Source: a virus | Lineage: Duplodnaviria > Caudoviricetes | Strand: one strand, 5' to 3' | IMG/VR virus record: IMGVR_UViG_3300028048_000002 | Coordinates: 64,001 to 128,000 of that record | DNA: 64,000 nucleotides | Shown here: piece after piece, positions 15,585 to 28,939 of the stretch | Position numbering within the stretch: the first letter of the stretch is position 1 | How the letters are laid out: every line of letters starts with the position of its first letter | Notes under the pieces: model-generated | The model's input: only the letters and a program-made list of their open reading frames with translations | Told to the model about the DNA's origin: nothing | Databases searched by the model: none | Translations under genes and position numbers: made by a program

Positions 15585-16259
15585 TTAGTACTCTTCATCA
15601 TCGATAGCATATTGAGAATCATTTAGAATATTTTCCAAATATTGTTTGTACATTTTTTTAAATGTTGCTTTAGTTTTAGATTGAATAGCTAATTCAATTA
15701 CATCTTCATTAAACATCTGATAATCATAATTTTCAGCAAGCTTTTGTTTAAAATCTGATGAATAAAACCAAATACCTCCCATACCCATTTGTGTGGAAGG
15801 TTCTAACACAACTCCTAATGTATCTTCAACTTCTTGTTGTATTTTTTCTAATTCCTCCCCAGCATCAGTTTGTGAATACAATGAATCAATTCCATCATTA
15901 GATTCTTGTTCTAGTTGATTACGCAGACCTTTCCATCCCCCTATAGGTATTTCCATTTGTATATAAAAATACAAAGAGTTAGAATAAAGACCTTGACCAG
16001 CTTCAATATTTGGATCATCTGTATATTTTAATAATTCAGATTTTAACTGTTCATCATATATTTTTTTATCGTGTTGAGATAAAATAATATCAGTAGAATA
16101 GTCATACCCAGTAAATTTTTTTCCTTTATCTGTATATGTATATTTTTTTATATTCTTTAACTCTATAGTACGACCTAAAACTTTAGAAAATAAATTTGCA
16201 ATTTGTTCTTTAGTTAATGGAATTGATTTAGATTGATTTGCTTTAATATATCTTTTCGT
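15585..16259 (-). CDS. MKRYIK-leader gene with ACG in place of ATG; C-terminal EPS-Q-GxG domain
   Basis: ACG AAA AGA TAT ATT AAA GCA AAT; frame open for 95 codons into the annotated 15585..15974 ORF. Confidence 0.6.
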   Translation of the reverse strand, partial: TKRYIKANQSKSIPLTKEQIANLFSKVLGRTIELKNIKKYTYTDKGKKFTGYDYSTDIILSQHDKKIYDEQLKSELLKYTDDPNIEAGQGLYSNSLYFYIQMEIPIGGWKGLRNQLEQESNDGIDSLYSQTDAGEELEKIQQEVEDTLGVVLEPSTQMGMGGIWFYSSDFKQKLAENYDYQMFNEDVIELAIQSKTKATFKKMYKQYLENILNDSQYAIDDEEY

Positions 16260-16321: not shown

Positions 16322-16633
16322 TTAATATTCTTCATTGTCATCAAAATCATACCAATCATAATCATAATAATGATTATGAACTATAGATCTAACAGAATTA
16401 CAAAATTCTTTGTTATCATAATCGGCAAATGGCAGCAAACTTTCGTAAATTCCGTCATCATCCATTTCAGTTATAATCAAAATGACATGCTCAAGTGTAA
16501 CTTCATATGCATCATCTTCACAATATTCTGGATAATTCTCCCAAATTTGATAAAGAATATCCAACGTAAGATCTTCTAGTAATTTTTCAGATATTCTGTT
16601 ATCACTGTTTGCAGCTTTGATATATCTTTTCAT
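16322..16633 (-). CDS. MKRYIK-leader family acidic protein
   Basis: MKRYIKAA. Confidence 0.7.
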   Translation of the reverse strand: MKRYIKAANSDNRISEKLLEDLTLDILYQIWENYPEYCEDDAYEVTLEHVILIITEMDDDGIYESLLPFADYDNKEFCNSVRSIVHNHYYDYDWYDFDDNEEY

Positions 16634-16680: not shown

Positions 16681-16966
16681 TTACAAAGCCTTCAAAGCTC
16701 GATTTACCCCTCTAGATATCTTACGCATGCCAGCATCAATTTCACCTTCGGTATCATCACCGTAGAAGTCAAATTCCGAATAAGATTTTCCCTATACCCA
16801 TTGACCATTTACACTTACATCAAACTCATAATGCAAGTTACCATCAGACCCAAAGTATGGTATCCCACGTAGGATTTTTCTCTTCTAATCTTTCACAAAT
16901 TTCATTAGGAACTAACGCATCTGGCACTTGTCCACTTACTTTTGAAGCTTTAATGTATCTTTTCAT
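16681..16966 (-). pseudogene. MKRYIK-leader gene with frameshift and TAG
   Basis: MKRYIKASKVSGQVPDAL... stops early; the shifted frame continues YFGSDGNLHYEFDVSVNGQWV*GKSYSEFDF...KAL*. Confidence 0.6.
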
Positions 16967-16985
16967 GTTTTTCCTTAAACTAAAG

Positions 16986-17159
16986 TAACATTACTTATTT
17001 ATTAAAAATTATTTTTAAGTCTTCATAATGATCTAGATCAGATTTTATATCTCGAATTTTTTCATCAAGATATTCAGATACAAGAAACTTTGCTTTTTCT
17101 TCATCATTTTCTTTTAGAAGGACGTAAATGATGTAATTAGAAATTCTCTATTTATCTAT
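16986..17159. repeat. ~175-bp direct repeat, copy 1 (gene remnant)
   Basis: Similar to 17839..18013; minus strand encodes YVLLKENDEEKAKFLVSEYLDEKIRDIKSDL without a start. Confidence 0.8.
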
Positions 17160-17192: not shown

Positions 17193-17819
17193 TTAATACT
17201 CCTCATCGTAATCTTCATCATAATAACCATAATCCGAAATATCGTCATAGAATTTAGCTTCTACGTCATCGTTGATTTCATCTCCAGGGAACTTATGCTC
17301 CATGTCTTTTTCAAACAATTCAAAAGCTTTATCATGAAAATCAGATCCAGAAAGCTCCCAATAAGCTGGATTATCGTTTACTATTTCAACATACTTAACA
17401 ACATCAAACTCATTTCCAGTTGAATCCGGTAATCCATGTATTACATAATCTTCAATAGTCTTTGCATATGCTCTCCTATTACGTTGTCCATTACGTTGTG
17501 GTTGAGGTGTTTTTTCTTTAAGAATTTCACGAATCTTCTTCATCTGTTCCTTACCGTATCCTGATTTGAGAATTTGATGAATCTGCCACATCTGAAGATT
17601 ATCGTATTCCGGGTCTGCATACCAAGATACGTCAACACCTTCTTCGAGGCCTCTGCGAATCTCATACATCTGATCCTTATCGTATTTCGGATCTGCGTAC
17701 ACAGATACGTCAAGGCCGTCTTCGAGACCATCGCGGATTTCTTTCATCTGCCACTTATCAAACACACCCATATTTTTGTAATCTTCAATTGTTTTTGCTG
17801 CTTTGATATATCTTTTCAT
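17193..17819 (-). CDS. MKRYIK-leader protein with 26-aa YADPKY repeats (2)
   Basis: MKRYIKAAKTIEDY; DVSxYADP repeats; acidic tail. Confidence 0.75.
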   Translation of the reverse strand: MKRYIKAAKTIEDYKNMGVFDKWQMKEIRDGLEDGLDVSVYADPKYDKDQMYEIRRGLEEGVDVSWYADPEYDNLQMWQIHQILKSGYGKEQMKKIREILKEKTPQPQRNGQRNRRAYAKTIEDYVIHGLPDSTGNEFDVVKYVEIVNDNPAYWELSGSDFHDKAFELFEKDMEHKFPGDEINDDVEAKFYDDISDYGYYDEDYDEEY

Positions 17820-17838
17820 ATTTTTATCCTCCATAAGA

Positions 17839-18013
17839 TAACATTACTCATTTATTAAAGATTGAGTTTTAGATTTTCATAATAATTTAGATCAGATTTT
17901 ATATCTCGGATTTTTGTATCAAGATAATCAGATACGAGCGACTTTGCTTTTTCTTCATCGTTTTCTTTTAGAAGGACGTATATGATGTAATTAGAAATTC
18001 TCTATTTATCTAT
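17839..18013. repeat. ~175-bp direct repeat, copy 2
   Basis: Similar to 16986..17159; partial third copy at ~18852..18910. Confidence 0.8.
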
Positions 18014-18089
18014 TTAAAATAAACAAGTTAACTGAGAAAATTCATTAAATTGAAAAATTCATCATATCAATATCAGAAAATTGATATTA

Positions 18090-18839
18090 TCAATACTCTA
18101 CATCGTCATAAAAATCATTCAAACTATATTCATCATCGAAATAAATAGGTTCAGATGTTCCTGCAAACTTCTCACGCATATATTTAACTTCATCTATCAT
18201 ATCAGGTATTTCAAATGCATGATGAGATCCTACGGATTCAAAGCAAACGTCAAGTGCCGCATCTTTAATCTGAGATATATCTGTTGGATCATCATAATAA
18301 TCAGGATCTTCTATAAACGATTTAACTACATCCTTTAAGTATGCCCACGAATACAAATCCAATTCCTGTGTAGCTACTTCAATTACCTTATCTCCGAGTA
18401 AAGCGCAATATTCAGAATCCAAACCATCTGATTTAATGGTTTGAATAATCTTAGATTTTACATCTTTTGCTTCTTTAGAAGTTTCACCTACTCTATTTTT
18501 CTTTTCTTTAAGGTTTTCACGAAGCTCCTTCATCTGCTTCCAACTATATTTCGGATCTGCATATACCGAAACATCAAGACCCTTTTCGAGACCTTGATAA
18601 ATCATGAGCATCTGGTATTTATCATATTTTGGGTCTGCGTACCAAGATACGTCAACACCATTTTTGAGTCCTACAAAAATCTGAAGCATCTGGTCTGCAT
18701 TATATTTCGGGTCTGCATATATAGATACATCAACCCCCTCTTCGAGACCTCTACGGATCCAGCGCATCTGGTCATCATCAAAAACACCCATCTGTTCATA
18801 ATCTTCAATTGTTTTTGCAGCTTTGATATATCTTTTCAT
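18090..18839 (-). CDS. MKRYIK-leader protein with 26-aa YADPKY repeats (3)
   Basis: Leader + repeats + unique acidic C-terminal domain. Confidence 0.75.
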   Translation of the reverse strand: MKRYIKAAKTIEDYEQMGVFDDDQMRWIRRGLEEGVDVSIYADPKYNADQMLQIFVGLKNGVDVSWYADPKYDKYQMLMIYQGLEKGLDVSVYADPKYSWKQMKELRENLKEKKNRVGETSKEAKDVKSKIIQTIKSDGLDSEYCALLGDKVIEVATQELDLYSWAYLKDVVKSFIEDPDYYDDPTDISQIKDAALDVCFESVGSHHAFEIPDMIDEVKYMREKFAGTSEPIYFDDEYSLNDFYDDVEY

Positions 18840-18974
18840 GTTTTGTCCTTTCATAAGATAACTTTGCTTATTTATTAAAGATTACTTCTCACACCTTCAT
18901 AATAAGCTAGTGTAGTTCCCTTCTCTTGAAGTTTTGATATTTATTACTACATACATATTATATAATATGTTACA

Positions 18975-20081
18975 ATGAAAGTTGGTGAGAACATGAAAAA
19001 ATGTCAATACTGTAATAAAAAATTTGAACCTAGAAATAATAGACAAAAATACTGTGAGGGTCCTCATATTAGAATCTGCCCTGTATGCAAGAACGAATAT
19101 TTAGAGAAAGACAATTGGCAACTTCAATTTCCACCACATGCTTGTTCTTATAAATGCAGGGGAATTCTACAGTCTCAAACTAAAGCTAACAAACCTAAGA
19201 AGAAAAGAAAGCTTATCCAACTATTAGAAGATAATCCTCAATATATAGATAAATTTGATTCAGCTAACATATTAAATAGAGGTAAACTAATATATGAACT
19301 TGAAAAACTTCTTCAAGATAACAACATTCAATATATGCTGCCTATCCATATTGAGAATGAAAGATATGACGTTTGGTTAAAAGCTTCGAATACTGTTTTA
19401 TTTGTAGCGGAGTTTTCAGAAGACATCAACCACAATCGTAATAAAGTAAAATTAGCAGAATCAAAAGGATACAATTGCTTCATTATCTACCCTTGGGATG
19501 ATTTAAATAAAATAGTTCAACAATTTAGACCAAAAGTGAAAGTTGATTTAGACAAATGTTCACTATTCAGACTGAATAGAAAACCTTCAAACGAGTTTTT
19601 AAATAATTATCATCTACAAAATTCATGTAGAAATCAATTATCGTTTTGGGGTATTGTTAGAGAGAATGAAATCCTTCAGATAATAACATTTGGTAAACCT
19701 AGATTTTCTAAAAATCACTCTATTGAGATAATGAGATATTGCACCAAACCTGAAATTAAAATTGACGGTAACTACATAAACTTGTTTTATGGAGTCCAAG
19801 CACTGCAATATTTGCAAAATGTAGTTGGATATGAACAAATTGGAAGGTTCCAGGATTTTAACTTCGAGCAACTTGGATTCATCTTACAAAAAACAACCCC
19901 ACCACAAGAAGTATGGTCAAAAGAAAACAAGCACATAACAGCTTCTTTGCTACGTGCTCGCGGATACGATCAATTATTTAGTACTAATTACGGGAAGGGT
20001 GTTAGTAATGAGATGTTGATGTTACAGAATGGTTGGTTACCTGTTTACGATTGTGGGCAGAAGGTTTTTGTATTTAGATAG
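18975..20081 (+). CDS. Hef-like free-standing homing endonuclease
   Basis: Zn-ribbon N-terminus; FLNNYHLQ, ITFGKPRF, IEIMRYC, GWLPVYDCGQKVF motifs; only credible plus-strand gene. Confidence 0.7.
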   Translation: MKVGENMKKCQYCNKKFEPRNNRQKYCEGPHIRICPVCKNEYLEKDNWQLQFPPHACSYKCRGILQSQTKANKPKKKRKLIQLLEDNPQYIDKFDSANILNRGKLIYELEKLLQDNNIQYMLPIHIENERYDVWLKASNTVLFVAEFSEDINHNRNKVKLAESKGYNCFIIYPWDDLNKIVQQFRPKVKVDLDKCSLFRLNRKPSNEFLNNYHLQNSCRNQLSFWGIVRENEILQIITFGKPRFSKNHSIEIMRYCTKPEIKIDGNYINLFYGVQALQYLQNVVGYEQIGRFQDFNFEQLGFILQKTTPPQEVWSKENKHITASLLRARGYDQLFSTNYGKGVSNEMLMLQNGWLPVYDCGQKVFVFR

Positions 20082-20111
20082 GATTAAATTTACAACAACC
20101 TTAATCCTATC
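20077..20111. terminator. Bidirectional terminator between convergent genes
   Basis: GATAGGATTAA...TTAATCCTATC inverted repeat. Confidence 0.55.
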
Positions 20112-20134
20112 TATAAATGCATCTTTTTTTACTC

Positions 20135-20911
20135 CTACTCCTCAAATGCGTACTCGTTGAGAATATTCTCGAGATAAGCTCGATACTTCTTTTTGAACTC
20201 AGTTTTGTTTTTGGATTCAATGGCTATATCTATTGTTTCGTTGTTAAAGGTTTGGTAATCATAATTGGAAGCTAGTGTACTGTCATCTTCATTAGACAGG
20301 AACCAAATACCTCCTTGCCCGCCCTGTATTGAGGGTTCTAGCCAAATTCCGAGCGCGTTTTCAACTTCTTGTTGAATGGATTCAAGTTTTTCACCCGCCT
20401 CTGTTTGCTCATACAAGGGATCAATTCCGTCTTCAGCTTCACGTTGTAAGTTATTTACAAGTGATTTCCAGTTAATGCGTTTTGATTTACCTGCACCTTC
20501 TAATTCTTCACGGATTTGCTTCATCTGCTTATTATCATATTTCGGATCTGCATACTGGGAAACATCTAAACCTGAGGAGAGGCCGTAACGAATTTGCCTC
20601 ATCTGCTTCCAACTATATTTCGGATCTGCGTACACAGATACATCAAGACCTTTTTCAAGACCCTCACGGATCTCCCACATCTGCTCCCAATCGTATTTTG
20701 GGTCTGCGTACACAGATACATCGACACCGTCTTCAAGTCCTTGAAGAATCTGACCCATCTCCATAGATCCAAATTTCTTAGGGTCTGCGTACACAGATAC
20801 ATCAAGACCCTTTTCGAGACCATCACGAATCTTCTCCATCTGGTACCTATCAAACACACCCATGTTTTCATAATCTTCAATTGTTTTTGCGGATTTTATG
20901 TATCTTTTCAT
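20135..20911 (-). CDS. MKRYIK-leader protein, 4 YADPKY repeats + EPS-Q-GxG domain
   Basis: Leader, repeats, WKSLVNNLQREAEDGID...LEPSIQGGQGGIWF. Confidence 0.75.
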   Translation of the reverse strand: MKRYIKSAKTIEDYENMGVFDRYQMEKIRDGLEKGLDVSVYADPKKFGSMEMGQILQGLEDGVDVSVYADPKYDWEQMWEIREGLEKGLDVSVYADPKYSWKQMRQIRYGLSSGLDVSQYADPKYDNKQMKQIREELEGAGKSKRINWKSLVNNLQREAEDGIDPLYEQTEAGEKLESIQQEVENALGIWLEPSIQGGQGGIWFLSNEDDSTLASNYDYQTFNNETIDIAIESKNKTEFKKKYRAYLENILNEYAFEE

Positions 20912-20965
20912 TTTTACCTCATATAAATGTCGAATCTTATACGAAATTTATACGCATATTTAAGA

Positions 20966-21127
20966 TTATTTTATCTGAATAACAACTTCATCTGGTTTAT
21001 CATATGGATAATTTGAATCAACCCAAACTGTTTCGATTACTTCTTCAATATTTAGCATATAGTCATCTACAACTCGTAAATTTGGATTAAATTCCTGCAG
21101 CTTTTCAATAAGGTCTTTGACTTTCAA
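20966..21127 (-). CDS. Small hypothetical phage protein (MKVKDLIEKLQEFNPNL...)
   Basis: Manual translation, TTG start, 53 aa. Confidence 0.55.
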   Translation of the reverse strand: MKVKDLIEKLQEFNPNLRVVDDYMLNIEEVIETVWVDSNYPYDKPDEVVIQIK

Positions 21128-21212
21128 TTTAAAGCCCTAATTCTTCAAGTGTTTGATAACAATCAGATGCATTTATATATCCATCTTTAGATAATTTAGC
21201 CATTCATAACGT

Positions 21213-21764
21213 CTACTTAGTCATTTTTTTAATCCAACCTTGTACTTGATCATCAATATCTTCAATTGCATCTAAATATGAATTATAGATTTTATTATTT
21301 ACAATAATTGTTTTAGCATAGGGGATTAAACTTTTTCCATGTGTAAATTTGAGTAATTCTGGTGATTTTAATTCTTCCTTTTTGTTCTTCTGCTGTTTTT
21401 TAGTTCTATGTGCTTTATGATTTGAAATTCTTAAACGTAATCTAAATTTTAAAACTATATTACCTGCATTATCTTTAGCTAAGAAATTATAGTAATATGA
21501 ATTATTTTCAGAAGTATCAAAATATGTAAGTTCTAATCCGTAATTATCTATCAACAAGTCTTCTACAGACTCAACAAAATCTTCATAATCAGCAAGAAGC
21601 TGCTCAGAAATTATCGCATCTTTATCTCCAGGAATTACTTCACCATCAGGAATATACAAACCTTTATAGCTAGCAGATAAAATTTCAAAATCTTGATAAG
21701 CTTGTATTACTACATCAATCTCTTTTATTTGAGTTTGTATATTAGATTTAATATATCTTTTCAT
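21213..21764 (-). CDS. MKRYIK-leader family protein
   Basis: MKRYIKSN; AAGGAGG RBS; LRISNH motif. Confidence 0.7.
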   Translation of the reverse strand: MKRYIKSNIQTQIKEIDVVIQAYQDFEILSASYKGLYIPDGEVIPGDKDAIISEQLLADYEDFVESVEDLLIDNYGLELTYFDTSENNSYYYNFLAKDNAGNIVLKFRLRLRISNHKAHRTKKQQKNKKEELKSPELLKFTHGKSLIPYAKTIIVNNKIYNSYLDAIEDIDDQVQGWIKKMTK

Positions 21765-21880
21765 CTTAACCTCCTTAGCGGTTTAGCAATTGATAGAAGT
21801 AATCTAGCATCTAAGGCTACTAGAAATCTGCGTCCAGACTGTCCTTCTATCAATTGTTATTAACGAAGATTGAGATTAAA

Positions 21881-22531
21881 TTAATATTTTTTAAATTCTG
21901 ATCTTAAATTACGGCGATACTCAGACAAATTCTTAGATTTTAATATTATATTCATCATAGTATATAACCATTCTTGATAATCTAGTTCATATAACGCTTC
22001 ACCATATTTATTCATTACTAGCATAACCCCTTCACCAGCTTGAGTGCTTCCTTCAAAGTATATCCCTAGATTATTTGCTTCTGTATTTATTATACCATTA
22101 AAATAATTAGCTTCTTCTGTATCATCATCTAAACCATAATCAGAATTTTCTAAGGCTTGAACCATTGTTATCCATTTACTTGATTTACTTTTATTTTTAT
22201 TTTCTAATGATAATTCTTTACTATCTTCTCTATTTTTCGCAGCACGATATGCATTCAATATATCTGAATATCCGCAACTATCATAAAAATTTTCGGATCT
22301 TTTATATACTTCAGGAAAATCTTGCATAAAAAGTTCTTTTGCAAGAGTTCGTTTACTAAACATAATTATATCATAGATGCTATCCTCTGAAATATTAGGA
22401 TATTCTCTAAGTATTTCTGATTCTAATGTTTCGAAGTCAGGAAAAGGCGTATCATAAAGTATATTATTTTTTACATATTTTTCAAGTCCTTCATATACAA
22501 AATTTTCTGAAGCTTTGATGTATCTTTTCAT
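21881..22531 (-). CDS. MKRYIK-leader protein with divergent EPS-Q-GxG domain
   Basis: MKRYIKAS; FEGSTQAGEGVM...DYQEW. Confidence 0.7.
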   Translation of the reverse strand: MKRYIKASENFVYEGLEKYVKNNILYDTPFPDFETLESEILREYPNISEDSIYDIIMFSKRTLAKELFMQDFPEVYKRSENFYDSCGYSDILNAYRAAKNREDSKELSLENKNKSKSSKWITMVQALENSDYGLDDDTEEANYFNGIINTEANNLGIYFEGSTQAGEGVMLVMNKYGEALYELDYQEWLYTMMNIILKSKNLSEYRRNLRSEFKKY

Positions 22532-22534
22532 AAC

Positions 22535-23314
22535 TTACTCCTCAACTGCATATTCTTCGAGAATATTCTCGAGGTAAGCCTTATAACGTTTTTTATACTC
22601 AGTCTTATTTTTAGATTCAATAGCCATGTCTACCGTGTCTTCGTTGAAGGTTTGGTAATCGTAGTTGGAAACTAATGTGCTATCATCTTCACTCGATCGG
22701 AACCAGATGCCGCCCCTCCCAGCTTGTACTGAGGGTTCGAGCCAAATTCCGAGAGCATTTTCAACTTCTTGTTGGATTGATTCAAGTTTTGAACCCGCAT
22801 CTGTTTGCTTATACAGGGAATCAATTCCGTCTTCAGCTTCACGTTGTAAGTTATTTACAAGTGATTTCCAGTTAATGCGTTTTGATTTACCGGCACCTCC
22901 TGATTCGAGACCTTTACGGATTTCAAGCATCTGTTCCCAATCATATTTCGGATCTGCATACTGGGAAACATCTACACCTGAGAAGAGGCCATAAAGAATT
23001 TGCCTCATCTGTGATCTAGCATATTTCGGATCTGCATACCAGGAAACATCTACACCCATATTGAGGCCGGACCAAATTTCGTGCATCTGTTCATAATCGT
23101 ATTTCGGATCTGCATACACCGATACATCTAAACCCTTTTGAAGTCCATAACGAATTACCTTCATCTGTTCCCAGTCATATTTCGGATCTGTATACCAGGA
23201 AACATCTACACCGTCTTCAAGGCCTATACGGATTTCTCTCAGCTGCTTATCATCAAACACACCCATAGCTTCATAATCTTCAATGGTTTTTGATGCTTTA
23301 ATGTATCTTTTCAT
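22535..23314 (-). CDS. MKRYIK-leader protein, 4 YADPKY repeats + EPS-Q-GxG domain
   Basis: Close paralogue of 20135..20911. Confidence 0.75.
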   Translation of the reverse strand: MKRYIKASKTIEDYEAMGVFDDKQLREIRIGLEDGVDVSWYTDPKYDWEQMKVIRYGLQKGLDVSVYADPKYDYEQMHEIWSGLNMGVDVSWYADPKYARSQMRQILYGLFSGVDVSQYADPKYDWEQMLEIRKGLESGGAGKSKRINWKSLVNNLQREAEDGIDSLYKQTDAGSKLESIQQEVENALGIWLEPSVQAGRGGIWFRSSEDDSTLVSNYDYQTFNEDTVDMAIESKNKTEYKKRYKAYLENILEEYAVEE

Positions 23315-23380
23315 GTTTTTCCTTACTTACTTAATAGAAGGTATTTGTTTATGAATAAACTAACTACCTGTAAATGCATC

Positions 23381-23950
23381 TTAATATTGTCCATAACCTT
23401 CAAATACATCAGCTAAGTATGATTCAATATCATCTGGATACTCAATATTTGCTGCATCTAGCTTCTCAAGCATTTCATCAATACAAGCATCTTCAAATTC
23501 GTCATCCCATAAATCTGTAGTGTCATTAAGATATGAAATAACTTCGTCTTTATAGCGATTTACAAACTGCTCAACATCTTCTCCAGGCCAATCTTCATCT
23601 TCATCATCCGAAGCACAGATGTTAGTTGATGCAGAAACCCATGTAAACTGTTTCAATTGATCTATAATCGCTTGAGGATTAGAAATTTTACTTCTATTAG
23701 CATCTTCAAGTATATCGATATATTCTTCAAGTCTAGCGATCAAATTCTCAGATTCTGAAATACTATATCTAATCTTTCTCTTAATATCATCCTCAGCTTG
23801 ACGATATTTTTTCGGATCTGAAATTGTAATTAGATTTTCTAGCTCATCTATAATCCGCTGTCTAGATGCTGTATAATTTCTAGGAGCTGGATTATTATAA
23901 TATCTTCCATATGCACGACCAGAAGCTGATTTAATATATTTTTTCATCAT
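23381..23950 (-). CDS. MKRYIK-leader protein (MMKKYIKSAS) with internal VSAS/ICAS motifs
   Basis: C-terminal acidic domain shared with 27566..28447. Confidence 0.7.
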   Translation of the reverse strand: MMKKYIKSASGRAYGRYYNNPAPRNYTASRQRIIDELENLITISDPKKYRQAEDDIKRKIRYSISESENLIARLEEYIDILEDANRSKISNPQAIIDQLKQFTWVSASTNICASDDEDEDWPGEDVEQFVNRYKDEVISYLNDTTDLWDDEFEDACIDEMLEKLDAANIEYPDDIESYLADVFEGYGQY

Positions 23951-24031
23951 TAAAATCTTCCTATCTTTTAACTGGTACATCTATAATTACATAAGGTTAC
24001 ATAGCTATATTCACATCTAGAAAACATCTTT

Positions 24032-24451
24032 CTAAAGTTTATATACATAGTGTCCGTTTTCATCTATTCGACCACGACGACGAAGTTCATCAATAGTAGA
24101 TTCATCTCCCCCTAAATCAAAAATCGCATCATCGATGTCAACATCACTCATACCTGAATCAATCCAGTCGTCTAATTGTGAGTCTACTATATCTACTATA
24201 AGAGACGATTCCGATTTATTTACAACATTCGAAAGTAAATGTGTCAGTTCTGCAATTATATTAATAAGTTGTTGTTTATTAACTCCTGTAAGAAATCCGT
24301 CAGGTCCTTCATCGCTTTCCTGCGCACCATTATCAATTAAGATTTCTTCGACTAACTGAGTATCGCAATATTGCATTGCATAGTCATAAACAAACATCAC
24401 AGCATCTTGTAAAGCCGAAATGCTTGAAGCAGCTTTAATATATCGTTTCAT
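24032..24451 (-). CDS. MKRYIK-leader family protein
   Basis: MKRYIKAAS. Confidence 0.7.
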   Translation of the reverse strand: MKRYIKAASSISALQDAVMFVYDYAMQYCDTQLVEEILIDNGAQESDEGPDGFLTGVNKQQLINIIAELTHLLSNVVNKSESSLIVDIVDSQLDDWIDSGMSDVDIDDAIFDLGGDESTIDELRRRGRIDENGHYVYKL

Positions 24452-24568
24452 ATCTATCTTCTTTCTTACTACTTGAGCCTAGTCAAAAACTTCCGTTGAT
24501 TTAATATAAAGATTATAAATTATGAAATTACAACAATTATCACTTCTTATTATTTTTATATGTTGGAA

Positions 24569-25336
24569 TTAGATAAACGTTAATTCAATATTACCTGTAC
24601 CCGAAGATAATTTCAATACATAATTATCAGAATTAAATTTTTCTAGTATTGAAAGTACGTATTCTTTTATTTTTCTATTGTACCTTTTTGCTAAATGTTG
24701 ATTTTGACTGCCGAGATCTATATAACCTGTCCACGTTAATCTGAAATTATAATTATTTAATTGATCTATTTCTTCTGGTAAGAATACATTGTTGTAATTA
24801 ACAGCACTTAGAAGAGTTTTACCTGTATATGTTTTATCACCTGTAGGTATTTTCGGTCCACTTAAAATAAATTTGTTTTTATTCTTTTTAGTTACTAAGG
24901 ATTCATCAAAAGGCTTATCTGAAATAACGTTAAATATTTCTTCTAAAATATCTAACGCTTCTTCAAATTTATCATTTTTAGAATTTACTTTTAGATATTT
25001 TTGACGTAATAGTTGTCTTTTTCGATTAAACTCACTTCTAGACATATGACCTCTAGCAGTTGTTATGTATTCATAATTATCATAGTCAGCTAAACCAAAT
25101 TCAACTACACTATCATAGTCATAACCAGAATTTAAAGATTCTTCTAAATAAGCTTTTAAATCATCTACATATGCGTAATCTGCCCAAATATCTCCAAGGT
25201 CTTCGTCATTATATATTTCTATACCACCGTTTTTAATTGAAATTTTACATCCTTGGTCTCGTTTAAACTTGATCGCATCTTTAAATAACGTATCAATATA
25301 TTCATATTCAAATGATGCTTTAATGTATCGTTTCAT
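24569..25336 (-). CDS. MKRYIK-leader family protein
   Basis: MKRYIKAS at ATG 25336. Confidence 0.7.
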   Translation of the reverse strand: MKRYIKASFEYEYIDTLFKDAIKFKRDQGCKISIKNGGIEIYNDEDLGDIWADYAYVDDLKAYLEESLNSGYDYDSVVEFGLADYDNYEYITTARGHMSRSEFNRKRQLLRQKYLKVNSKNDKFEEALDILEEIFNVISDKPFDESLVTKKNKNKFILSGPKIPTGDKTYTGKTLLSAVNYNNVFLPEEIDQLNNYNFRLTWTGYIDLGSQNQHLAKRYNRKIKEYVLSILEKFNSDNYVLKLSSGTGNIELTFI

Positions 25337-25632
25337 TATTTCCACCAATCATCGCTATTTTGCTTTTTATTCCAGGCTTTCCAATCCTCTAGTTCTAATG
25401 CAGTCGTATTAGAAGGAATCCAGAAACCTTGAGATGTATATTTAAGCTTAGACCATTTATCTCCTAAATTAGCCCATAATGAACCATCGTTACTCTCATA
25501 TACTTGTAAATCATCATAATTCTTTCCCCAATAAGAAAACGATACAGTTTCATTTGTAGGTTGTAATTCAACTTCTTTATTACCATGAAATTGAGTTTTA
25601 ACTGTAATTGATGATCTTATGTATAGTTTCAT
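25336..25632 (-). CDS. MKRYIK-leader family protein (MKLYIRSS)
   Basis: Leader variant at ATG 25632. Confidence 0.65.
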   Translation of the reverse strand: MKLYIRSSITVKTQFHGNKEVELQPTNETVSFSYWGKNYDDLQVYESNDGSLWANLGDKWSKLKYTSQGFWIPSNTTALELEDWKAWNKKQNSDDWWK

Positions 25633-25713
25633 ATGATTAATCATCTCTCTACTAAATCTAAAAGATGGTGTTCTCGAGCACCTAAGCTATTAGAAACCAC
25701 CAAAGATTATCTT

Positions 25714-26415
25714 TCACATCCTATCTGCGCGGGTGTTCCATGCAGTTATAGCTTCGGCTTCAGATGGATAATTGTCTATGAAATGCCCGTGGCTTTGTTC
25801 GCTCTGCAAATCCGATTCGCAGAAAACACCATAGACCTTACAATCATCGTCGTATTCGAGCACTTTCACGCTTGCTTCTCCCCCGCAGAAAGGACAAAGC
25901 TCCGTTACCTTCCTTCCACAGCCTAGCTCGGCGATTCTCGCAATCGCGTCATCTGATGTGTGTCCGTCCCATTCGGGCGCGTACTCACGCTCCTTGCAGT
26001 CGAACATCTCCCAGTACGGGTCGAGGTCGTAGTGGTACGTGGCCTGGCCTTTCGGAGTATCGATACCGACTATGAACATGCCGTCGTACATCGTGCCGTC
26101 GTGGTGCTTGAGAGCTTTCCACGCAAGCTCTCTATGGTCGCGTACAATCACACTGAACAGCACCGCCCTGTGATGGTACAGCTCGTTGAACGTGTGGTAT
26201 CCGTCACTCGTGTTACCGTTGATTTCGCTCCCCAGCGTCGCGGCTATGGCCTGCTCGGGCGTGACCGCCATTATCAGCTTCGCGCTAGGTGTGAGCTGCA
26301 TGGCTGTGAAGCCGTTCCAGCTCGTCTCGCACGCGCCCATGTGGTCGTTCGTCGTGTACTCGATGCCGCGCTCTGTTAGCTTGGCACGCAGCTCGGTCGT
26401 TCGGTTGTCGATCAT
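25714..26415 (-). CDS. WDGH-motif domain fused to Lar-like (restriction alleviation) zinc finger; GC-rich
   Basis: SDGYHTFNELYHHR..APEWDGHT; CPFCGGEA..C..AITAWNTR. Confidence 0.65.
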   Translation of the reverse strand: MIDNRTTELRAKLTERGIEYTTNDHMGACETSWNGFTAMQLTPSAKLIMAVTPEQAIAATLGSEINGNTSDGYHTFNELYHHRAVLFSVIVRDHRELAWKALKHHDGTMYDGMFIVGIDTPKGQATYHYDLDPYWEMFDCKEREYAPEWDGHTSDDAIARIAELGCGRKVTELCPFCGGEASVKVLEYDDDCKVYGVFCESDLQSEQSHGHFIDNYPSEAEAITAWNTRADRM

Positions 26416-26495
26416 CGCGCTACCTCTCAATAAATAACAACAGTCCAATAAAGTTCAAAGCGCATATCAACAAAGCGATGATTATTGCGATCGCG

Positions 26496-26729
26496 CTAGG
26501 CTTCGCACACTTCTATGTCTATTACGCGTGTATTCCATTTCTTTGCAGCTGCTTCAATAGCGTCTACGGGTGTCTTATATCCACATCTGCTTGTTTCAAG
26601 ATTGAAATTACATTCTGGACAATGTGTGTATGCTGACCACGATTCATCACCTAACACATTTGTCCATCGTTTTGGCAAAGGTTCCCCTACTTCGTTTCCA
26701 CAAAACGGACACGGTTTCAGCTCGATCAT
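26496..26729 (-). CDS. Lar-family restriction alleviation-like protein
   Basis: ELKPCPFCG...CPEC...AAKKWNTR. Confidence 0.65.
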   Translation of the reverse strand: MIELKPCPFCGNEVGEPLPKRWTNVLGDESWSAYTHCPECNFNLETSRCGYKTPVDAIEAAAKKWNTRVIDIEVCEA

Positions 26730-26792
26730 TCGCTCTCTTCTTTCACCTCGACCTCAAAAGAATTCGCGTTATATTTACTTACCCATTTTTCC

Positions 26793-27563
26793 TTACAGTC
26801 TACATAAATTCGTAAGATAACTCTCGTAGCTTGATTTGAATTCAGCTTCATTTGAAGCGTTTGCGGCTAAATAAAAGATGTCATTGTTGAAATCATTATA
26901 ATCATAATCTTCCACCAAAGCTTCATCAGTAGAATTATCCCAAATCCAAACGCTACCGACTCCAGCTTGAACTGAGGGCTCTACGTAAATATCGAGTCTT
27001 TCTTCTACTTGCTTACATAAGCTGTTTAAATACCTTCCAGCTTCTGTTTGTTCATATAAAGAATCAATACCGCTTTCAGCTTCACTTTCTAACTTATCGA
27101 AGAGTGATTTCCAGATGGGTGTTGATTTTTTCTGAGGCTTGAGCAAACCCTGCAGCTCCCAACGAATTTGCTGCATCTGCGACCAACTATATTTCGGATC
27201 TGTATATAAAGATACGTCAACACCGGATTCGAGACCTTTGCGAATTTGCTCCATCTGATGGTCATCATATTCCGGATCTGCATATTGGAAAACATCTATA
27301 CCGGATTCGAGGCCTCTACGAATTTCCCTCATCTGCGACCAACCATATTTTGGATCTGCGTACTCAGATACGTCAATACCGGATTCGAGGCCGCGACGGA
27401 TTTCAATCATCTGCGACCAATCATATTTCTTTGGATCTGCGTACACAGACACATCAACACCGTTTTTGAATCCTTCACGAATCTGATCCATCTGATTTCT
27501 GTCAAAAACACCCATATTTTCGTAATCTTCAAGGGTTTTTGATGATTTTATATATCTTTTCAT
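26793..27563 (-). CDS. MKRYIK-leader protein, 4 YADPKY repeats + EPS-Q-GxG domain
   Basis: Leader, repeats, VEPSVQAGVGSVW. Confidence 0.75.
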   Translation of the reverse strand: MKRYIKSSKTLEDYENMGVFDRNQMDQIREGFKNGVDVSVYADPKKYDWSQMIEIRRGLESGIDVSEYADPKYGWSQMREIRRGLESGIDVFQYADPEYDDHQMEQIRKGLESGVDVSLYTDPKYSWSQMQQIRWELQGLLKPQKKSTPIWKSLFDKLESEAESGIDSLYEQTEAGRYLNSLCKQVEERLDIYVEPSVQAGVGSVWIWDNSTDEALVEDYDYNDFNNDIFYLAANASNEAEFKSSYESYLTNLCRL

Positions 27564-27565
27564 AA

Positions 27566-28447
27566 TTAGTATCTTTCAAACATATCAACTAAGTAAGATT
27601 CAACATCATCGGAAACATACAAGCCTTGCTTCTCTAACATATCAATCATCTTATCTATACATTCATCTTCAAAATCCTCATCCCCAAGGTCTGTTGTATC
27701 ATTTATGTAAGAAACAACTTCATCTTTATGTTTTTCTGCGAATGCAATTGCTTCTTTATAATCTTCATCTCCGTTGAGAATATTCTCGAGGTAATCCTGG
27801 TAACGTTTTTTGAACTCAGTCTTATTTTTAGATTCGATAGCCATATCTATTGTGTCTTCGTTAAACGTTTGGTAATCGTAATTGGAAGCTAGTGTGCTGT
27901 CATCTTCACTCGAATAGAACCAGATACCTCCCCTCCCAGCTTGTATTGAGGGTTCTAGCCAAATTCCGAGAGCATTTTCAACTTCTTGCTGGATGGATTC
28001 GAGTTTTGAACCCGCATCTGTTTGCTTATAAAGGGAATCAATTCCATCTTCTGCTTCTCTTTGTAGCTGATTTACAAGTGATTTCCAGTTTAAACGTTTT
28101 TGTTTTGTGGGTTTTTCGAGGCCTTTACGGATCTTGCTCATCTGCTCCCAATCGTATTTTAGATCTGCGTACACAGAAACATCAAGACCTTTTTCAAGAC
28201 CCTCACGGATCTCCTCCATCTGCGCAGAATTAAATTTCGGATCTGCATACCAAGATACGTCAACACCTTTTTCAAGGCCTTCGCGAATCTCGCTCATCTG
28301 TGCCCAAATGTATTTTGGATCTGCGTATACAGATACGTCAACACCTTTTTCAAGGCCTTCGCGGATCTCGTTCATCTGATACTCATTAAATACACCCATG
28401 TTTGCATAATCTTCAATTGTTTTTGCTGCTTTTATGTATCTTTTCAT
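27566..28447 (-). CDS. MKRYIK-leader protein, 3 YADPKY repeats + EPS-Q-GxG domain + acidic domain
   Basis: Modular paralogue; KDEVVSYINDTTDL domain shared with 23381. Confidence 0.75.
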   Translation of the reverse strand: MKRYIKAAKTIEDYANMGVFNEYQMNEIREGLEKGVDVSVYADPKYIWAQMSEIREGLEKGVDVSWYADPKFNSAQMEEIREGLEKGLDVSVYADLKYDWEQMSKIRKGLEKPTKQKRLNWKSLVNQLQREAEDGIDSLYKQTDAGSKLESIQQEVENALGIWLEPSIQAGRGGIWFYSSEDDSTLASNYDYQTFNEDTIDMAIESKNKTEFKKRYQDYLENILNGDEDYKEAIAFAEKHKDEVVSYINDTTDLGDEDFEDECIDKMIDMLEKQGLYVSDDVESYLVDMFERY

Positions 28448-28492
28448 TTTTACTTATCCTTTTTATTTATTAAACCAAGCAATTTCATCTAG

Positions 28493-28873
28493 TTATGCAT
28501 AATCTTTTAAATAATATTTAGCTTCATCCCACTTCCTAATAGCTTTATCATATCCATATAGTAACCAATATCTGATAGCTTTCATTTTTCTCCAAGTATA
28601 TTTAGGATTCATATATTCTTCTACATCTACACCATCAATTAAACCCATACGAATCTGACCCATTTGTTTTGCATCAAATCTTGGATCTGCATATATATCA
28701 ACATCTACATTATCTGAAAGTCCTAATTTAATTTGATGCAATTGATCTTTTGTAAATCCTTGTTCTTCATATTCAGACATTATCATTTTATACCCAGCAG
28801 ATTTTTCTCTACTAGATAATTCTGGAAAAGGCTTATTCCAATTACGATAAGATGCTTTAACATATATTTTCAT
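28493..28873 (-). CDS. MKRYIK-leader protein (MKIYVKAS), 2 divergent YADP repeats
   Basis: DVDIYADPRF, DVEEYMNPKY. Confidence 0.7.
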   Translation of the reverse strand: MKIYVKASYRNWNKPFPELSSREKSAGYKMIMSEYEEQGFTKDQLHQIKLGLSDNVDVDIYADPRFDAKQMGQIRMGLIDGVDVEEYMNPKYTWRKMKAIRYWLLYGYDKAIRKWDEAKYYLKDYA

Positions 28874-28910: not shown

Positions 28911-28939
28911 ATTGTAAGTTATAACACAATATAAGTCAA
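28911..28939 (-). promoter_or_regulatory. Host sigma70/sigmaA-type promoter
   Basis: TTGACT-N17-TACAAT. Confidence 0.7.

Follow-up and report, generated by a model that had tools for sequence, protein, structure and literature searches.

Seven genes on the minus strand of a phage from the cattle gut, here called g1 to g7, encode proteins built on a tandem repeat of 26 residues. The stretch of DNA that we analysed (the window, 64,000 nucleotides) comprises bases 64001-128000 of the IMG/VR record IMGVR_UViG_3300028048_000002. The phage is uncultured and its record is complete, with 162,817 bp and direct terminal repeats. Because its PHROG matches include a tail sheath, portal, large terminase, DNA polymerase, clamp loader and UvsX-like recombinase, the genome is, on gene content, taken to be that of a large myovirus-like phage. 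Genome-wide, the repeat is confined to g1-g7. Several bovine gut metagenomes hold near-identical DNA. A megablast search of the repeat region against cultured and deposited phages gave zero matches, and tblastn found matches in three unannotated faecal phage records only.

Anchoring on the QMxxIRxGL helix located 30 helices, 22 of which form complete 26-residue units with the full GxDVSxYADPK turn. The genes carry 2, 3, 4, 4, 4, 3 and 2 complete units in coordinate order, and every array closes with a half-unit cap, its last helix. The register of the unit is Y/F1 D2 x3 x4 Q5 M6 x7 x8 I9 R10 x11 G12 L13 E14 x15 G16 V/L17 D18 V19 S20 x21 Y22 A23 D24 P25 K26. In a conservation table of 23 rows, which includes the degenerate unit g1.3, columns 5, 6, 9, 12, 13, 16, 18, 19, 22, 24 and 25 were conserved to at least 91%. 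Entropy was 2.3-3.4 bits at columns 3, 4, 7, 11, 15 and 21, and intermediate at columns 2, 8 and 14. Tandem Repeats Finder (TRF) reported period-78 arrays with 72-80% matches in six of the seven genes and none in g7, which is too short and diverged for the program. A two-unit profile matched unrelated database proteins with E down to 1.5e-282, placing the repeat far above chance. An earlier reading made from the letters alone (the sequence-only reading) had counted the same 22 units in the same seven arrays, all behind a leader, with a near-invariant scaffold and variable positions. Helix anchoring, the column table and the leaders described below bear this out, and every tripeptide it had listed at variable positions (DWE, SWK, DNK, NAD, ARS, IWA, GWS, DDH) was found.

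In g1-g6 an eight-residue leader of the MKRYIK type is followed by a conserved N-cap (KTIEDYxxMGVF), the units, the cap and a C-terminal part. The latter is a unique acidic tail in g1 and g2 and a module called CTD-A in g3, g4, g5 and g6. g1 (17193-17819) holds two complete units and the degenerate g1.3, and its tail ends in DEDYDEEY; the repeat region spans 17514-17762, with the period-78 array at 17588-17759. g2 (18090-18839) has three units (repeat region 18504-18782, TRF 18545-18750) and a C-terminal region ending in DDVEY. Four units and CTD-A make up both g3 (20135-20911; repeat region 20495-20854, TRF 20510-20841, CTD-A 20138-20470) and g4 (22535-23314; repeat region 22901-23257, TRF 22903-23236, CTD-A 22538-22870), the protein that was modelled. 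g5 (26793-27563; repeat region 27147-27506, TRF 27162-27462) also has four units, followed by a diverged CTD-A (26796-27113) with 48% identity to those of g3, g4 and g6. Three units are present in g6 (27566-28447; repeat region 28112-28390, TRF 28112-28378), which carries a 67-residue tail in addition to CTD-A (27755-28087). The transcriptionally first gene, g7 (28493-28873), encodes a basic protein (isoelectric point, pI, 8.9) with the variant leader MKIYVKAS, a 30-residue linker and two diverged units plus cap (28556-28756), and no further domain.

Predicted fold and the slot of the array

AlphaFold2, run on g4 with an alignment of 30 sequences, predicted a helical solenoid with a mean predicted local distance difference test score (pLDDT) of 89.7. 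Each unit consists of a 12-residue alpha-helix (columns 3-14) and a helical turn of 3-4 residues (columns 19-22). The C-terminal domain is separate in the model and is made of two helices, three strands and two helices; modelled alone, CTD-A reached pLDDT 94.8 and a predicted template modelling score of 0.88. On a helix wheel with 100 degrees per residue, columns 3, 14, 7, 11, 4 and 8 lie at 0-140 degrees and the conserved columns 12, 5, 9, 13, 6 and 10 at 180-340 degrees. By this geometry the variable helix positions would form a solvent-exposed stripe facing away from the core. The sequence-only reading had proposed a solenoid, to be checked by structure prediction and by asking whether variable sites share one face. 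The model supports the former and helix geometry the latter.

Neither the repeat domain nor CTD-A has a convincing relative among solved structures. Foldseek searches of the PDB with the whole g4 model and with CTD-A gave nothing at E<=0.001. A wide VIA-align search with the repeat domain returned mainly designed helical repeats (Z<=8), besides BurrH (Z 5.3), the KorB helix-turn-helix (5.0), AvrBs3 (4.2), LRV (4.0) and weak PPR rows, and the best score for CTD-A was Z 4.8; the scores of both domains fall below or within the noise level stated for helical proteins. Sigma-factor region-2 rows for CTD-A (Z 3.5-4.8) were not read as homology, and its structural neighbours in the ESM Atlas (DUF5688, FlaG, DUF3848) had template modelling scores of ~0.5 or lower. 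A PDB sequence search gave one 19-residue match, to the phiKZ tubulin TubZ/PhuZ (3ZBP 265-284, E 0.03), which we took as probably due to chance since the phage genome has no tubulin gene. These 3ZBP residues carry YADPEKYDFDQMHFVINGLS, a near-perfect single copy of the repeat's loop-helix junction.

LRV (PDB 1LRV; PF01816) and short HEAT-like repeats likewise form solenoids from 24-30-residue units of one alpha-helix and a short helical turn. Comparison of 1LRV with the repeat domain (Z 4.0) gave a root-mean-square deviation of 7.9 over 123 residues, and its alternation of helix and short helix fits the secondary structure predicted by AlphaFold2. Unlike LRV and HEAT repeats, however, the present unit has 26 residues and its own motif, QMxxIRxGLExGxDVSxYADPK(Y/F). 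An hmmscan of the seven proteins at E<=1 gave no match to HEAT/LRV families (PF02985, PF13646, PF01816). Relatives that bear HEAT/LRV arrays showed no detectable homology to a profile of the repeat (A2, made from 15 two-unit pieces), with an hhalign probability of 0.9%. Transcription activator-like (TAL) effectors and BurrH have a two-helix unit of 33-35 residues with a base-reading di-residue in a basic array, whereas the unit here has 26 residues and six of the seven proteins are acidic. With BurrH and AvrBs3 scores in the noise range for helical repeats, the repeat falls outside that class, and the acidity of the proteins makes direct reading of nucleic acid unlikely.

The leader is not restricted to the repeat genes. 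MKRYIK[AS] or a close variant forms the N-terminus of ~23 otherwise unrelated open reading frames (ORFs) of the genome, mostly located at 6-29 kb in the window. In proteins P0051-P0059 from other metagenomic contigs, an MKRYI(K/R) leader and CTD-A flank HEAT/LRV arrays in place of the 26-residue repeat, and in P0084, from another contig, they flank an LRR_5 array. One repeat class is thus replaced by another in a fixed slot between leader and CTD-A. Of the architectural evidence, this replacement speaks most strongly for the array as an interaction module.

Parts of the same architecture recur next to the seven genes on the minus strand. A stand-alone CTD-A without leader or repeats is encoded at 15585-15956 (blastp, 59-64% identity to CTD-A of g3, g4 and g6). 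In the leader protein at 21881-22531 the N-terminal part differs and CTD-A is diverged (25-29% identity, E 1e-9 to 3e-6), and the C-terminal 69 residues of another, at 23381-23947, match the g6 tail (51% identity, E 3e-20). This last match shows that leader genes have modules in common. One local hhalign match, of no significance, links the repeat to the first CTD-A helix (IREGLEKGLD and LQREAEDGID, respectively) and suggests that CTD-A may start with a degenerate unit.

Acidic-aromatic tails (DEDYDEEY, DFYDDVEY, DFDDNEEY and IDDEEY) are found at the C-termini of four array proteins. They are those of g1 (17193-17260), g2 (18090-18150) and two neighbouring ORFs (16322-16380 and 15585-15640). 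Repeat proteins of an unrelated phage group (loci L011-L029) have a similar C-terminal end, DYDEDYGDDFGDL. These tails are reminiscent of the C-terminal tips of single-stranded DNA-binding protein (SSB) and T7 gp2.5, which dock onto partner proteins.

A repeat family of Bacillota mobile elements

Pfam, PHROGs and NCBIfam hold no family for the seven proteins or their bacterial relatives. Searched against 1.84 billion representative proteins, profile A2 matched 3,787 protein clusters at E<=1e-3, 2,355 at E<=1e-10 and 649 at E<=1e-30, and some matched proteins hold 14 two-unit matches. Bacillota and the mobile elements of these bacteria supply most of the matched clusters. Neighbours of the repeat in the ESM Atlas are "hypothetical" proteins, mostly in viral clusters, some of which are labelled Organ_specific. 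This label is spurious: g3 scored 17.2 bits against the 22.5-bit cut-off of Pfam PF10950, and in long relatives the score is a sum of weak repeat matches of which none passes alone. A literature search with motif strings retrieved zero papers, and the repeat is not described in the survey of polyvalent proteins by Iyer et al. 2017 (PMC5512222). Loci with the repeat in bacterial genomes are almost all from Bacillota, and the taxa found were Lachnospiraceae, other Clostridia, Erysipelotrichaceae, Negativicoccus, Tissierellia, Desulfosporosinus, Peptacetobacter, Mycoplasmopsis and Spiroplasma. In this phage, g1-g7 represent a large and still unnamed family of 26-residue helical-solenoid repeats typical of Bacillota mobile elements.

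Polyvalent proteins have been proposed to travel with invading DNA and to counter host defence (PMC5512222), and the repeat occurs in such proteins next to ArdC-N, MPTase-PolyVal, LPD11/18/25, YodL, RadC and PBECR4. In long relatives it is joined to ArdC-N and a zincin MPTase (with or without LPD25), to Toprim and PBECR4, or to RadC. Three relatives (P0121, P0122 and P0125) qualify as polyvalent, being large single polypeptides with at least two different effector domains. Unlike these, g1-g7 have 126-293 residues and contain the repeat with at most CTD-A and no recognisable enzyme, and so lie outside the polyvalent class. Fusions to FapA_N and FapA account for 25 of the 96 top-scoring members and for 26 of 75 repeat ORFs in bacterial genome loci. 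LPD18, LPD25, PBECR4, DUF3846, DUF3849, DUF7666 and NT5C each occur as single cases among the 96, and the remainder have no other Pfam domain. A Desulfosporosinus locus has a relaxase flanked by two repeat proteins downstream of ParA, ParB and a primase, whilst in a Clostridia metagenome-assembled genome a YodL-repeat protein lies between a giant LPD11-SNF2 protein and a relaxase. A Clostridium perfringens plasmid encodes an 83-residue two-unit protein a few kb from an ArdC-like gene.

Sets of paralogues were also found in other elements. A 274-kb viral contig carries five tandem repeat genes of 5-11 units each and another contig three of 4-10 units; both sets have their own common N-terminus, MNNLNLNIEQF. 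Tandem genes that start in this way were located in large phage contigs at L026 533-1681, L030 142-2707 and L002 4632-9331, and their RLNLNLN-like tails resemble the start of the next gene. Two repeat genes with an MKKYIK leader lie on a 159-kb contig. Finegoldia magna plasmid pFMC (L123, NC_010371.1 18365-36724) carries six co-directional repeat paralogues of 3-10 units beside ssb. These have common N- and C-termini, are all annotated as hypothetical and alternate with two copies of another, 225-residue paralogue; two TnpB genes adjoin. Leading regions with ssb are documented anti-defence islands (PMC11541004), and the ssb-adjacent pFMC array may lie in such a region.

Selection, unit turnover and neighbouring genes

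The 22 units share 46-86% of their DNA sequence (mean 67%), and per-site ratios of non-synonymous to synonymous change (dN/dS, omega) among them were uninformative because synonymous sites are saturated (pS 0.57-0.78). Between g3 and g4, dS was equal in repeats (0.85) and CTD-A (0.82), whereas dN was threefold higher in the repeats (0.30 versus 0.10). By column, omega was 0.04-0.14 at the scaffold of this genome. Variable columns had dN of 0.7-1.4 against a regional dS of 0.6-1.5, giving omega of ~0.5-1.8. Orthologues in a group of near-identical phage contigs (L011-L029) gave 0.4-0.75 at variable columns and ~0.04 at the scaffold, and the five paralogues of L002 gave 0.6-1.5.

In the L026/L030 paralogues, omega reached 2.3-4.1 at variable columns (dN 0.59-0.74), with 0.1-0.3 at the scaffold and one-sided Fisher p values of 3.7e-6, 1.5e-6 and 1.8e-4 for three gene pairs. 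Their dS is only 0.14-0.27, and at scaffold positions one synonymous codon is used almost exclusively: Gly12 is GGT in 28 of 34 units (27% background), Leu13 is CTT in 33 of 34 (34%) and Gln5 is CAG in 25 of 34 (26%). As background codon usage is split, codon bias does not account for the low dS, which instead stems from recent ancestry or homogenisation. In young copies, diversifying selection, or selection that maintains differences against homogenisation, can thus be demonstrated; it varies among lineages and is not measurable in the old copies of the window. The description of the family as diversifying in the sequence-only reading is therefore not demonstrable in this genome, where sites are saturated, and is borne out in the young paralogues of another phage.

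Tryptophan made up 9.8% of residues at variable columns against 1.2% genome-wide, an eightfold enrichment (p = 9e-9). Variability also peaks at these columns in FapA fusions, in leader proteins encoded on other contigs and in other mobile-element proteins, so the pattern is not peculiar to this phage. Entropy at columns 7, 8 and 11 was 2.7, 1.2 and 2.8 bits in FapA fusions, versus 3.7, 2.6 and 3.4 in the leader proteins of other contigs and 3.8, 2.5 and 3.7 in other mobile-element proteins. Both the tryptophan enrichment and this contrast between FapA fusions and mobile elements point to an interaction surface.

The nearest relative of a unit is usually in another paralogue (g1.1-g6.1, g1.2-g6.2, g3.3-g6.3, g3.4-g4.4-g5.3), indicating that the arrays descend from old gene duplications; identity between units is 0.70 within genes and 0.66 between them. 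Unit order is not fully colinear: an SSGLDVSQ-type unit closes the series in g3 and g4 yet is number three of four in g5, and g4.2 is paired with g3.3. This, and the fact that the arrays differ in length by whole units, shows that units were gained, lost or exchanged in the past. Between units, the longest exact shared tracts measure 9-36 nt, a marginal substrate for homologous recombination, and neither these tracts nor the unit relationships show recent recombination in this genome. With such short tracts and nearest relatives elsewhere, unit events in this genome are old. Reshuffling of 78-bp units, as claimed in the sequence-only reading, therefore stands as past turnover of whole units and not as a recent process. 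Among the L011-L029 orthologues, one allele is a unit short and the last two units of another are mosaic. The region of g6 CTD-A and the start of g5 (27502-28090) is matched at 94% identity by an 889-nt contig of another sample (run X4), which continues on both sides into units that best fit g2 and g3 (joints 18659 and 20615). Either the strain behind this contig has its units assorted differently, or similar units were cross-mapped, which joints seen at 85% likeness may reflect.

Other features of the locus lie between and beside the seven genes. Overall GC content is ~30-34%, and the single island of 43% GC, at ~26-28 kb between g4 and g5, holds two minus-strand restriction-alleviation (Lar) genes, at 25714-26448 (WDGH domain and Lar) and 26496-26729 (Lar), both without leader. 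Foreign anti-restriction genes appear to have been inserted here recently. The lone plus-strand gene inside the array (18975-20081) encodes 368 residues with a Cys-rich N-terminus and without a match in Pfam, and is possibly a selfish insertion; terminator-like hairpins lie at its 3' end, at 19927-19961 (minus strand) and 20041-20060 (plus strand). A conserved element of ~40 nt (TCTTTAATAAATRAGYAATGTTAYYTTA...) precedes three leader genes, g1 (17820-17930), g2 (18840-18900) and ORF 16844-16966 (16967-17077). Upstream of g1 and ORF 16844-16966 the similarity extends over ~110 nt and reaches the end of a small upstream ORF, and these shared stretches suggest duplicated two-gene cassettes. Short contigs identical to parts of g1, g2, g3, g4 and g6 are present in a bovine gut RNA library, which does not prove transcription.

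A candidate re-targetable binding module

We hold the chances to be about even that the repeat serves accessory, probably anti-host, proteins as a protein-binding module that can be re-targeted. From the repeat itself, its architecture and predicted fold, the size of the family, its fusions and contexts, and the swapping of modules, we infer binding, a kind of target and a mode of delivery as follows. The 12-residue helix would bury M6, I9 and L13, and the G-x-D-V-S-x-Y-A-D-P turn would lock each unit onto the next. Columns 3, 4, 7, 8, 11 and 14 on the opposite helix face, together with 15 and 21, would be solvent-exposed and free to vary. The array would then present a protein-recognition surface that steers accessory proteins, probably anti-host or anti-defence proteins, to host targets, and the paralogues may cover different targets or target variants. 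The elongated, locally folded solenoid would suit passage with DNA through a narrow channel such as a phage tail or conjugation pore. Binding, as put forward in the sequence-only reading, finds indirect support in the HEAT/LRV or LRR_5 arrays that occupy the same slot and in the eightfold excess of tryptophan at variable columns.

Several points count against a binding role. The split between a fixed core and a variable face is normal for any solenoid and family-wide, so it proves nothing alone. Tryptophan at column 3, present at 14-33% across the family, may be structural and not part of an interface. At the variable columns of g1-g7 omega cannot be told apart from 1, and these paralogues are old (dS 0.5-1.3). 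The link to anti-defence is one of association alone, and the phage is uncultured.

A reading that we consider rather unlikely treats the proteins as inert structural cargo, that is, leader-loaded internal head or scaffold-like proteins in which the repeat is a soluble, elongated spacer whose surface drifts neutrally. It would account for a leader common to ~23 otherwise unrelated ORFs. T4 internal proteins and phiKZ inner-body paralogues likewise carry a short N-terminal peptide on unrelated, small proteins clustered in one variable region. The T4 proteins differ in not being repeat proteins, and cleavage and packaging are putative for the leader proteins here. It would also suit the presence elsewhere in the genome, outside the window, of a frame resembling the T4 gp21-type protease Peptidase_S77 (G000:C1:16627-16947, 494 residues), which scored below threshold (24.7 bits against a 27-bit cut-off, E 1.1e-6) and neither supports nor excludes the leader as a capsid tag removed by protease. 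Neutral drift is consistent with the age of the paralogues and with omega of ~1 at their variable columns and 0.4-0.75 in one orthologue group. It does not, however, explain an omega significantly above 1 in the young paralogue set or tryptophan enriched on the exposed face, and the repeat is common outside phages, in conjugative polyvalent proteins and cellular FapA fusions. Timing may also be at odds with head cargo. The best sigma-70-like site (minus strand, 28911-28939, TTGACT-17-TACAAT) lies in the gap directly upstream of g7 and weakly hints at early and not late expression; it is a consensus match only, in a region where the count of such sites is not above shuffled expectation.

The charge of the proteins raises the idea of an acidic decoy, in which a negative solenoid imitates nucleic acid and titrates restriction enzymes or other DNA-binding defence proteins, as ArdA and Ocr do. 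For six of the seven, pI is 4.4-4.7 and net charge -15 to -29, ArdC-type anti-restriction proteins and ssb regions both occur in association with the repeat, and Lar genes lie inside the array. Charge per unit nevertheless ranges from -5 to +2 without a regular pattern, g7 is basic, and the only acidic positions conserved family-wide, E14 and D18, are both explicable as helix caps. Pfam, PDB-sequence and fold searches gave no similarity to ArdA or Ocr, and we regard a DNA mimic as improbable. Mimicry of a host protein seems just as doubtful. Here mobile elements would have captured the repeat domain from the N-terminus of cellular FapA-like proteins of Lachnospiraceae, and with it would compete for the normal partner of these proteins. 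The FapA_N and FapA fusions noted above among top-scoring members and bacterial loci fit this idea, as does the greater conservation of columns 7, 8 and 11 in them, which a fixed partner predicts. However, the repeat is likewise present on mobile elements of hosts without the fusion (Negativicoccus, Finegoldia, Mycoplasmopsis, Desulfosporosinus), and the phage paralogues differ most on that very helix face, a poor fit to a single conserved target.

The re-targetable binding module has parallels in better-known systems. Poxvirus and Legionella ankyrin-repeat proteins and TAL effectors are expanded repeat families in host-parasite conflict, and helical repeat arrays (ankyrin, TPR, HEAT, TALE) are a standard route to new binding specificities in parasites and hosts. 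By analogy, the 26-residue family likewise has several paralogues, variable repeat number, a fixed scaffold and a variable surface, together with signs of positive selection in one lineage; it differs from these ankyrin and TALE families in fold and sequence family. A further-reaching proposal, possible but tentative and less probable than binding itself, is that the unit is a new family-level, channel-tolerant, re-targetable module of Bacillota mobile elements on proteins that come into the cell along with invading DNA. Selection on one helix face would keep sets of paralogues diverse, and each copy would neutralise a different host defence or hub protein. Such a module would be expected on phage cargo behind the leader, on conjugative polyvalent proteins and in leading-region genes.

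The repeat is a previously unnamed unit with thousands of members, concentrated on the proteins that mobile elements of gut and rumen Firmicutes, namely phages, plasmids and integrative elements, bring into play at entry. Its compact 26-residue scaffold offers defined variable positions, and the young paralogue set with omega above 1 is a concrete place for studying how arrays diversify. Naming the family and providing a profile would annotate many "hypothetical" genes of gut viromes and plasmids, and the profile would flag candidate anti-defence loci in organisms with few known.

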